54,515 nt of DNA from an uncultured Gammaproteobacteria bacterium (lineage in GTDB: Bacteria > Patescibacteriota > Microgenomatia > Daviesbacterales > UBA10151), in NCBI GenBank assembly GCA_964640215.1, contig CAZXEW010000059.1, positions 1-54,515 of the forward strand. Reading direction: 5' to 3'. Positions 46,615-47,088 of the stretch are shown here, piece by piece (the first letter of the stretch is position 1; every line of letters starts with the position of its first letter). Under the pieces are notes generated by a model. That model was not told the origin of the DNA and did no database searches. It worked only from the letters and a program-made list of their open reading frames with translations. The position numbers were made by a program, and so were the translations under genes.

Positions 46615-46991
46615 GAAAAGGACGGCCACGATGACAGAAAAGGACGCTCATGATGATAATTAGTCTGGAGAGTGGCGGGTTTTCATAGCCCGAGCGGTTA
46701 ACAAAGGGATCTTAAGGCTGTGTAGGCACGAGGCCCAAAATCCCCCCTAAAACGGCTTGGAGGTGGGGGAGACGGGCAATTAGCTATCTTAGGTTTGGCC
46801 TGTTATAACAGTCTAATCACTTAGTTGATAGCTAGCTGAAATGATCCATGAAGAAATGTAAAAAGTTAACCAAATATTAGCAGGTAGCAAGTTAAATAAG
46901 GGTTTGTAAAAAGTTAGCTCTCAGGCTTAAATTTAACATCCGAGGCAGTTGGTTCAGCCTAGAAGCACTCCTCTCGGAATCCGTGCGTCCG

Positions 46992-47019
46992 ACGTCGCAT
47001 AATCTACATTGAGCGACGT
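46992..47019. other. Candidate dif-like Xer recombination site (near-symmetric 11-6-11)
   Basis: ACGTCGCATAA-TCTACA-TTGAGCGACGT; shares CGCATAA / TTATG cores with canonical dif; reverse-strand spacer TGTAGA vs E. coli TGTATA. Confidence 0.55.
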
Positions 47020-47088
47020 CGAGCTAACAAGCGAGGGATCAACTAGGCGTATATAGGCGTATCTTAGTTAGTTGTTTTGAAATATTGT

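Follow-up and report, generated by a model that had tools for sequence, protein, structure and literature searches.

A putative chromosomal dif site of a Daviesbacteria-family bacterium and a related motif across CPR/Patescibacteria

Xer/dif systems have been described in both archaea and bacteria. In Pyrococcus abyssi and Thermoplasma, one recombinase of about 290–315 aa, XerA, acts without FtsK on a 28-bp dif site that consists of two near-identical 11-bp inverted arms and a 6-bp centre. Archaeal dif sites lie 122–144 degrees from the origin (review PMC5357621). The dif site of E. coli, GGTGCGCATAA-TGTATA-TTATGTTAAAT (PMC2731167), is likewise an 11-6-11 element, single-copy and intergenic, and the system includes FtsK; its arms agree at 6/11 positions and are served by two recombinases, XerC and XerD. 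Proteobacterial dif sites are found at a median distance of 7.3 kb from the skew maximum, and at 39 kb in E. coli (PMC2731167). A third arrangement is seen in the XerS/difSL system of streptococci and lactococci and the XerH/difH system of Helicobacter and Campylobacter, where a single recombinase is paired with a nearly symmetric site and the gene and the site are frequently linked (PMC5357621, PMC2731167). XerS and XerH are proteins of 354–362 aa that form separate subfamilies. Both of their sites are A/T-rich, and difSL is 31 bp long with an 11-bp centre. Lastly, Smyshlyaev et al. 2021 (PMC8138268) place Xer-related simple recombinases from candidate phyla in a "Cand" subgroup, one of the class-specific groups of enzymes that may substitute for Xer; in the passages searched, no site was found on which the subgroup acts.

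The locus considered here lies in a 54,515-nt stretch of DNA, referred to below as the window, which corresponds to contig C59; the assembly comprises 80 contigs and 1.13 Mb, with a completeness rating of 99.6%. The organism belongs to the Daviesbacteria family of CPR/Patescibacteria, whose members include genomes named Candidatus Daviesbacteria in GenBank (MFCS01000025.1, JACPZA010000031.1), and the gene content of the window is CPR-like (DUF5656, cohesin and dockerin surface proteins, RuvC and YebC).

By analogy, the site would work most like archaeal XerA/dif, with one enzyme of ~300 aa, near-identical arms and a 6-bp centre. The best solved-structure match of the probable cognate enzyme, P0001 (Xer-1), is P. 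abyssi XerA, and in two family genomes the site lies 132–137 degrees from the inferred origin, within the archaeal range given above. In contrast to the archaeal systems, the host is a bacterium that encodes an FtsK with a gamma domain; the arm sequence also differs, and P0001 scores almost as high against XerC and XerD. The likeness to E. coli dif extends to the 11-6-11 geometry, the single copy, the intergenic setting, a position near the terminus in most genomes and the presence of FtsK. The inner left arm, CGCATAA, is identical to that of E. coli, and 16/28 bases of the window site and 17/28 of the family consensus match. The CPR site nevertheless lacks the conserved XerD arm TTATGTTAAAT, and its arms agree at 9–10/11 positions rather than six. 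P0001, at 314 aa, is only weakly matched to XerS and XerH, and the sequences of difSL and difH differ from that of the CPR site. P0001 is plausibly a member of the "Cand" subgroup.

The site and its conservation

The element had been picked out from the sequence as a dif-like near-palindrome with arms differing at two positions and a dyad running 2 bp further on each side, and this description holds. The reverse complement of the right arm is ACGTCGCTCAA, and only positions 8 and 9 set it apart from the left arm, such that the outer seven arm bases are identical between the arms. A CG on either flank extends the dyad (Table 1). This extension is not kept in relatives, where flank pair 9/40 of a 48-column alignment is unpaired in 9 of 35 distinct sites and pair 10/39 in 19. 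The site occupies a 1.25-kb ORF-less gap (46195–47442) with a minus-strand gene on either side.

Table 1. Coordinates of the dif-like site and associated features in the window.
Feature	Coordinates	Strand	Description or basis
dif-like 28-bp core	46992..47019	+	left arm ACGTCGCATAA 46992-47002; centre TCTACA 47003-47008; right arm TTGAGCGACGT 47009-47019
Extended palindrome (core plus CG on each side)	46990..47021	.	sequence read directly
Lone half-site-like 11-mer ATGTCGGACAA	46286..46296	+	reverse complement of TTGTCCGACAT, a right-arm variant of relatives
Xer recombinase Xer-1 (P0001, 314 aa), probable cognate enzyme	37806..38750	-	profile and structure matches
DUF5656 protein	47443-48234	-	Pfam; transcribed toward site
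RuvC Holliday-junction resolvase	48231-48779	-	Pfam; transcribed toward site
YebC/TACO1	48810-49592	-	Pfam; transcribed toward site

Other features of the gap are less telling. It holds repeats and start-less frames, as well as the lone 11-mer ATGTCGGACAA, which was noted because it shares the non-coding gap and lies 700 bp from the full site. About one such match per window is expected by chance, and whether the 11-mer is part of a dif system is uncertain. A second degenerate site that would mark an integrated element was rejected, as a single chance-level half-site turned up. At gathering thresholds, Rfam gave no match in the whole window, and only chance-level matches (E ≥ 1) were obtained in 46100–47500. 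No tRNA or tmRNA genes were found by scan, and an RNA gene or other structured element was thus rejected.

Symmetry of this grade is not exceptional. The window contains 10 sites of 11-6-11 geometry with ≥9/11 arm matches, versus 7.2 ± 2.4 in Markov-simulated windows, and two 13-6-13 sites with ≥11/13 matches, versus 0.5 ± 0.7. Palindrome quality by itself is therefore near chance for a single 54-kb window, and the sequence alone is no proof of a functional site. Since uniqueness and conservation do exceed chance, the evidence for the site is comparative.

The element is the sole copy in the 1.13-Mb assembly. With a weight matrix built from 34 relatives, the window site scores 37.1 bits, against 34.8–49.9 bits for the relatives themselves. 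A search of the genome with this matrix found no second full site; everything else scored ≤8 bits, save the other strand of the same site (15 bits). A canonical dif elsewhere in the genome was rejected, since no E. coli-type or B. subtilis-type site was detected and the best matches to either (20/28) looked random.

Conservation in relatives had been named as a test of the site, and the motif is indeed present once per genome in 52/96 family genomes, representing 38/63 genera. The same search with a reversed pattern gave a match in 1/96 genomes. It is the 28-mer that is shared rather than its surroundings: the flanking DNA does not align among family genomes that carry it. For instance, when a 211-bp query was compared with three other genera, the alignment was confined to the site's surroundings: two of them aligned over 27–28 bp, and the third over 50 bp with 78% identity. 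Family sites have the consensus ACGTCGCATAA-GATACA-TTGTGCGACAT, and all of them show T in one arm and C in the other at arm position 9 (CATAA versus CACAA). Of the 35 distinct family sites, only the window site has A at position 21, in the right arm; T is found there in the other 34.

The motif is not limited to the family. In an even sample of high-quality Patescibacteria genomes, it was found with ≤3 mismatches in 45/121, while the reversed-pattern control gave no match in the same sample. A scan of one genome per species yielded at least 120 records with the motif, and most of the matches listed come from CPR lineages, with every major group represented, or bear generic MAG labels. CPR labels among the matches listed include Daviesbacteria, Woykebacteria, Moranbacteria, Magasanikbacteria, Uhrbacteria, Falkowbacteria, Yanofskybacteria, Doudnabacteria, Berkelbacteria and Saccharibacteria, and the non-CPR entries among them are ~20 Paenibacillaceae and a few other taxa. 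Relatives bearing the motif have one locus per genome, with the exception of G053, which has two. The phylum-wide consensus is A[T/C]GTCG[C/T]ATAA-N6-TTGT[G/A/C]CGAC[A/G]T, and its commonest form is ATGTCGCATAA-N6-TTGTGCGACAT. The arms are conserved and the spacer is variable, with GATACA, GCTACA, TCTACA, CCATCA and others being seen.

The symmetry of the site is likewise kept. The arms agree at 9/11 positions in the window and mostly at 9–10/11 in relatives, where the outer seven bases of the two arms usually differ at one base. The phylum-wide arms, ATGTCGCATAA and ATGTCGCACAA, agree at 10/11. Such symmetry could in principle belong to a hairpin, and the pattern of substitution distinguishes the two. 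Variable arm positions mostly break pairing: of the 35 distinct sites, 25 lack pairing at 2/27 and 13 at 7/22, and overall 81.5% of cells are paired, versus 80.4% in column shuffles. Arm substitutions are thus non-compensatory, which argues that the symmetry reflects two similar protein half-sites and not a selected stem. With no covariation and no T-run after the stem, a hairpin or terminator was rejected.

Xer recombinases and the gene neighbourhood

The window encodes a single tyrosine recombinase, as had been read from the sequence. Its product, P0001, combines a Pfam Phage_integrase domain (1.1e-43) with an N-terminal SAM-like domain, and among solved structures it matches P. abyssi XerA (4A8E, 5e-37) and E. 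coli XerD (1A0P, 4e-35) best. The catalytic set is complete: each of R, K, H, R, H and Y aligns with its counterpart in XerD and XerA. P0001 falls below the NCBIfam cut-offs for XerC (TIGR02224; 241 bits, cut-off 335) and XerD (TIGR02225; 238 bits, cut-off 330), and narrowly above that for archaeal XerA (NF040815; 222 bits, cut-off 220), a model built for archaea. It scores 119 bits against the NCBIfam XerS model (cut-off 267) and has a weak match to XerH (5JJV, 1.5e-11).

Genes of this kind are a constant feature of the phylum. A Xer-1-like gene occurs in 121/121 sampled CPR genomes and is the sole Xer-like gene in 68 of them, and the motif is present in at least 29 of these 68 single-Xer genomes. 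None of the 121 reaches the XerD equivalog cut-off. The distance between gene and site varies. The gene is 8.2 kb away in this genome, and orthologs with 70–79% identity are found 1.3–9 kb from the site in at least 14/20 family loci; partial matches, cut by the end of the locus, are present in three more of the 20. The distance is 0.1–2 kb in six lineages (G026, G162, G034, G204, G114 and G156). Site and xer are hundreds of kb apart in G132, G155 and G131, and ~130 kb apart in G224.

Other neighbours of the site are conserved within the family. Of 20 family loci, all have DUF5656 next to the site, 18 have YebC and 17 have RuvC, with order and orientation unchanged, and the site lies 365–631 bp downstream of the DUF5656 gene and upstream of a cohesin-dockerin cluster. 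This gene context is kept in other Microgenomates and on one Saccharibacteria contig, and in few other CPR loci. In 8-kb loci around the motif, RuvC, YebC and DUF5656 are mostly absent from Parcubacteria and Saccharibacteria lineages, and RuvC is near the motif in 16/120 of the matches listed.

Beyond the window, the genome encodes a second tyrosine recombinase, a Xer-like paralog on contig C36, for a total of two. It is ~28% identical to P0001, and its profile scores are XerC/XerD/XerA-like. When aligned to XerD, it has Val at the position of the catalytic Lys and Asn/Asp at His-II. Orthologs with 57–85% identity occur in ~90/96 family genomes, and at least two Xer-like genes are present in all seven sampled genomes of the class, this one included. 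The paralog is not linked to the site: the distance between them is 236 kb in G005 and, by coordinates, 759 kb in G024.

These observations bear on the proposal of the sequence-only reading that the site is suited to a single Xer recombinase, which comparison supports with a qualification. In its favor are the near-identical arms and the many CPR genomes that have one Xer gene, a good number of them with the motif; on the other side, this genome and most family members keep the second paralog. Given the family-wide retention of that paralog, a single-Xer system does not follow from the number of genes. One enzyme reading both arms is favored by the presence of Xer-1 in every sampled genome (and by itself in 68), the occurrence of the motif in at least 29 of the latter, the linkage of xer to the site, the shared outer bases of the arms and the altered residues of the C36 protein.

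An FtsK with a C-terminal gamma-like winged helix is encoded on contig C44. In a search for KOPS-like polar guide motifs that would converge on the site, gene orientation acted as a confounder: the k-mers that switch strand preference from one inferred chromosome arm to the other (AGGGGA, GGGGGAG, GAAAAA and others) track gene orientation and resemble coding-strand and ribosome-binding-site words.

Nucleotide skew and the terminus

A chromosomal dif is expected near a skew switch, and the evidence on this point differs between this genome and other CPR genomes. Among the 54 CPR loci with enough flank for 3 kb to the left of the site to be compared with 3 kb to the right, GC skew falls from left to right in 50, with a mean drop of 0.124 and no rise >0.1. 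A fall in this direction marks a terminus and not an origin. In the 20 family loci, mean skew goes from between +0.10 and +0.18 to ~0 within the 1-kb bin that holds the site.

Complete genomes place the site at the edge of a strongly skewed arm, near the antipode. For example, the site is at 49.4% of the record in G155, at the onset of strong negative skew, and at 53% in a complete Moraniibacteriota genome (CP175956.1), where skew is +0.10 before and −0.12 after it. In G132, also complete, the site is at 672.6 kb and skew passes from +0.02 to −0.15 across it. The site bounds the strongly skewed arm in G005 and G024 of the same family as well, and these are the two genomes in which its angle was measured from the skew minimum, taken as the inferred origin. 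A low-skew zone adjoins the site both in family genomes and in two complete CPR genomes unrelated to them: on one side, strong skew stops no more than ~1 kb from the site, and on the other, 30–155 kb of near-zero skew precede the opposite arm.

No such step is seen in the genome from which the window derives. The plus strand is G-rich on both sides of the site, as had been remarked by eye in the sequence-only reading. The skew sign is unchanged for at least 47 kb on the xer side and, on the other side, for 7.5 kb on C59 plus ~36 kb on C60 and C17, if synteny with relatives holds. The gene order C17-C60-C59 is collinear with relatives, so the site would sit at least 47 kb and ~43 kb inside uniformly skewed DNA. 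When two complete relatives with ordinary two-armed skew served as synteny references for orienting the contigs, the skew sign was identical along every contig placed in this way. No skew switch was found on the dnaA contig. In contigs that match one ancestral arm, absolute skew averages 0.233 and the G-rich strand carries 68% of coding sequence; in those that match the other arm, the corresponding values are 0.142 and 33%. Because skew is of one sign genome-wide, it cannot be used to place the terminus of this genome. Despite the one-sign skew, the syntenic position of the site is the ancestral one. The expectation that the site lies at a skew switch is thus borne out in relatives and other CPR lineages, though not at the site in this genome.

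Candidate switches elsewhere in the assembly did not hold up. The last 2 kb of contig C59 have the opposite skew, and a terminus at ~52.5 kb of the window was rejected since, by synteny, C60 continues the contig with the same skew sign; the blip coincides with at least 4.7 kb of extra DNA that is absent from relatives. The candidate at C64:2528 was also rejected, as the first 2.4 kb of C64 hold a paralog of the large surface protein and the change is one of composition. None of four candidate switches (C64:2528, C19:2265, C75:15763 and C59:52523) has an 11-6-11 palindrome like the CPR dif consensus, the palindromes there being 9/11 matches of chance level.

Whole-chromosome skew of one sign has been published for Microgenomates of the order UBA1400, with the suggestion that origin and terminus are adjacent or that replication is unidirectional (PMC7143001). 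We can sketch another arrangement, which we regard as unlikely. Here, dif would form one sharp edge of a CPR terminus zone, the low-skew stretch described above, and termination would occur at either of two discrete points (a fork trap), of which one coincides with dif or adjoins it; the fork that arrives first would cross the zone, and one-sign skew would express a strand-specific mutational bias, not unidirectional replication. The latter point draws on dif, xer and their neighbors being at the ancestral position, ~130 degrees from dnaA.

Interpretation and significance

The reading that best fits these data, and to which we give a probability of about 80%, is that the 28-mer is the chromosomal dif of this Daviesbacteria-family bacterium and an instance of the phylum-wide consensus, with P0001 probably reading both arms. 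Under this reading, an odd number of crossovers would join sister chromosomes, and the two dif copies would meet at the division septum. Four P0001 subunits, one per 11-bp arm, would exchange strands across the 6-bp centre and thereby release monomers. The same Xer would probably read both arms, as archaeal XerA does, since the arms are almost identical and most CPR genomes have this Xer alone. The invariant T versus C at arm position 9 would supply the asymmetry that orders strand exchange, and the gamma-domain FtsK encoded on another contig may activate the reaction. Binding, catalysis, the use of a single recombinase and dependence on FtsK are the parts of this account that we infer.

Several observations count against a dif. 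The site is away from a skew switch in this genome, a second Xer-like paralog is conserved in the family, and the otherwise invariant T21 of the family is A in the window. Moreover, the gene neighborhood is conserved in the family along with the site, and conservation at that level could therefore reflect a local cis element.

The alternative closest to the preferred reading keeps the dif and changes its enzymology, in that two XerC/XerD-like recombinases would share the site, with Xer-1 on one arm, the C36 paralog on the other, and CATAA/CACAA marking their respective sites. The wide retention of C36 orthologs in the family, the two or more Xer-like genes throughout the sampled class, the invariant asymmetry at arm position 9 and the XerC/XerD/XerA-like scores of the paralog would all suit such a division of labor. 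It is harder to see how proteins of ~28% identity would both recognize arms whose outer seven, specificity-determining bases are the same in the window and nearly so in relatives, or why the motif should persist in at least 29 genomes with only one Xer-like gene. The paralog is also far from the site in G005 and G024, and it departs from XerD at the catalytic Lys and at His-II. We consider two recombinases quite improbable on these grounds.

Readings without a dif fare worse. If the 28-mer were a cis element of the RuvC-DUF5656 and surface-protein neighborhood, such as a dimeric regulator's palindromic operator or a hairpin formed in RNA or DNA (e.g., a terminator), its fixed position between DUF5656 and the cohesin-dockerin cluster in the family would be explained; in addition, a 9-bp stem can be drawn, and short flanking stretches are partly conserved. 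Yet the motif is kept where RuvC, YebC and DUF5656 are mostly absent, the proposed stem has neither compensatory changes, a following T-run nor an Rfam match, and a gene-specific operator would not follow a terminus-type skew step in 50/54 genomes, all of which makes a local element very improbable. We attach as little weight to the 28-mer being an attachment or end site, or the relic of one, of a Xer-type mobile or invertible element rather than a chromosome resolution site. This idea takes its appeal from Paenibacillus and Cohnella, where a tyrosine-recombinase gene lies between a pair of inverted copies of this 28-bp motif, the whole forming a ~1.1-kb unit, and from the repeats, start-less frames and half-site-like 11-mer of the gap around the window site. 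In CPR genomes, however, the motif is single-copy and has no partner site for excision or inversion, its position is stable and syntenic across 38 genera, and the terminus-type skew step and the phylum-universal, linked Xer fit a housekeeping role.

A chromosomal dif is an ordinary kind of element, and no description of one for CPR/Patescibacteria was found in a limited literature search. The dif databases in current use (Kono 2011, as used in PMC6251912) predate CPR genomes. The CPR/Patescibacteria account for much of bacterial diversity, and nearly all that is known of them comes from metagenome assemblies. For their fragmented genomes, a phylum-wide dif consensus would offer a one-line landmark for the terminus region, with which assemblies could be oriented and checked, growth-rate estimates from origin/terminus read depth could be anchored, and Xer-integrating elements could be sought. 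The motif also points to another candidate bacterial single-Xer system, the closest counterpart of which is archaeal XerA. Lastly, the CPR dif and the skew observations together make the meaning of one-sign skew in Microgenomates testable, in that replication termination in these bacteria would either coincide with dif or not.

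Surroundings of the putative dif site

The 28-bp near-palindrome regarded as a putative dif site shares its non-coding gap with a set of 22-nt tandem units that lie 330 bp away from it (see the table for coordinates). The two remaining copies of the unit show identities of 82% and 73%. An isolated 11-mer, ATGTCGGACAA, exactly matches the reverse complement of a right-arm variant found in relatives; this 11-mer, which by itself is at chance level, could be what remains of a duplicated site that an integrated element left behind.

Flanks were compared among the family sites (L007-L056) in columns 1-10 and 39-48 of A1, a 48-column alignment of the sites with their flanks. 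In many genera of the Daviesbacteria family, a pyrimidine-rich, CCCTTCCTTG-like stretch comes before the site and a GATAATATAG-like sequence comes after it. Both flanks are missing from the relative G089 and from the window, where the site is bordered by CGTGCGTCCG and CGAGCTAACA.

Several records that were assembled from metagenomes and bear the title "uncultured Gammaproteobacteria bacterium" also show synteny of the Daviesbacteria type (YebC-RuvC-DUF5656-site-xer), and they appear to be mislabelled as to organism. The site of CAYMZD010000001.1 is the same as that of family genome G048.

Table. Locations of features and loci in the window, the source assembly and other genomes
Feature	Location	Strand	Remarks
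Lone 11-mer ATGTCGGACAA	window 46286-46296		700 bp from the full site
Tandem repeat	window 46597-46662		three 22-nt units (AGAACGCTCAGGATGACAGAAA)
Extra DNA	window 52253-54515 and contig C60:20745-23158
ORF within extra DNA	window 52632-54455		607 aa
Second Xer-like recombinase	C36:12552-13418 (locus L002 1450-2319)	minus	289 aa
Paenibacillaceae units	L186 5067-6241; L147 1852-3038		Paenibacillus puldeungensis, Cohnella cellulosilytica
Similar loci	L201, L203, L212, L217, L220, L222, L223		two or three motif copies
Gammaproteobacteria-titled records	L119, L126, L143, L148, L165, L171, L205, L207, L228		Daviesbacteria-type synteny

Other recombinases and an apparent cassette bearing the same motif

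A second Xer-like recombinase is encoded on contig C36 of the source assembly and is kept in approximately 90 of the 96 family genomes. When aligned to XerD, it has Val at the position of the catalytic Lys of XerD and Asn/Asp at that of His-II. The protein could be a paralog that is either divergent or non-catalytic.

In Paenibacillaceae, a tyrosine-recombinase gene has a copy of the same 28-bp motif (ATGTCGCATAA-TTGTTA-TTGTACGACAT) on either side; the two copies are inverted relative to each other and sit inside inverted repeats of ~38 bp. The flanked enzyme is ~28% identical to Xer-1, the probable cognate recombinase of the site, and the entire unit, at ~1.1 kb, looks like a self-contained recombinase cassette that is invertible or mobile.

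GC skew of the source genome and its relatives

Wherever it could be checked across the 80 contigs of the assembly, to which the window belongs, the sign of the GC skew was uniform. Synteny to two complete relatives, both with normal two-armed skew, was used to place contigs, and all of those that could be placed share one sign, with values from -0.05 to -0.34 along G005. One ancestral arm has a |skew| of 0.233, with 68% of its coding sequence on the G-rich strand, while the corresponding values for the other are 0.142 and 33%. No skew switch was found at dnaA (contig C15). One-sign skew has already been published for the Microgenomates order UBA1400 (PMC7143001), whereas most family relatives of the source genome are two-armed.

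Between the gene at 51206-52252 and the genes of C60, the source genome has 4.7 kb or more of DNA that is extra with respect to four family genomes. Local skew in this DNA is null or reversed, and the contig break is located within it.

In relatives, the dif-like site was observed to form the boundary of a low-skew zone. This observation derives from loci L037-L056 and L057-L116 (G005, G024, G089, G012, G071, G065 and G044) and L240-L279 (G155 and G132). On one side of the site, strong skew stops within ~1 kb; on the other, skew remains ~0 for 100-155 kb in the Daviesbacteria family, or 30-60 kb in G155 and G132, before the opposite arm begins. The arm of the site that faces the zone is CATAA in the family, in contrast to CACAA in G132 and G155. 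One idea is that two discrete termination points, constituting a fork trap, could account for the low-skew zone.
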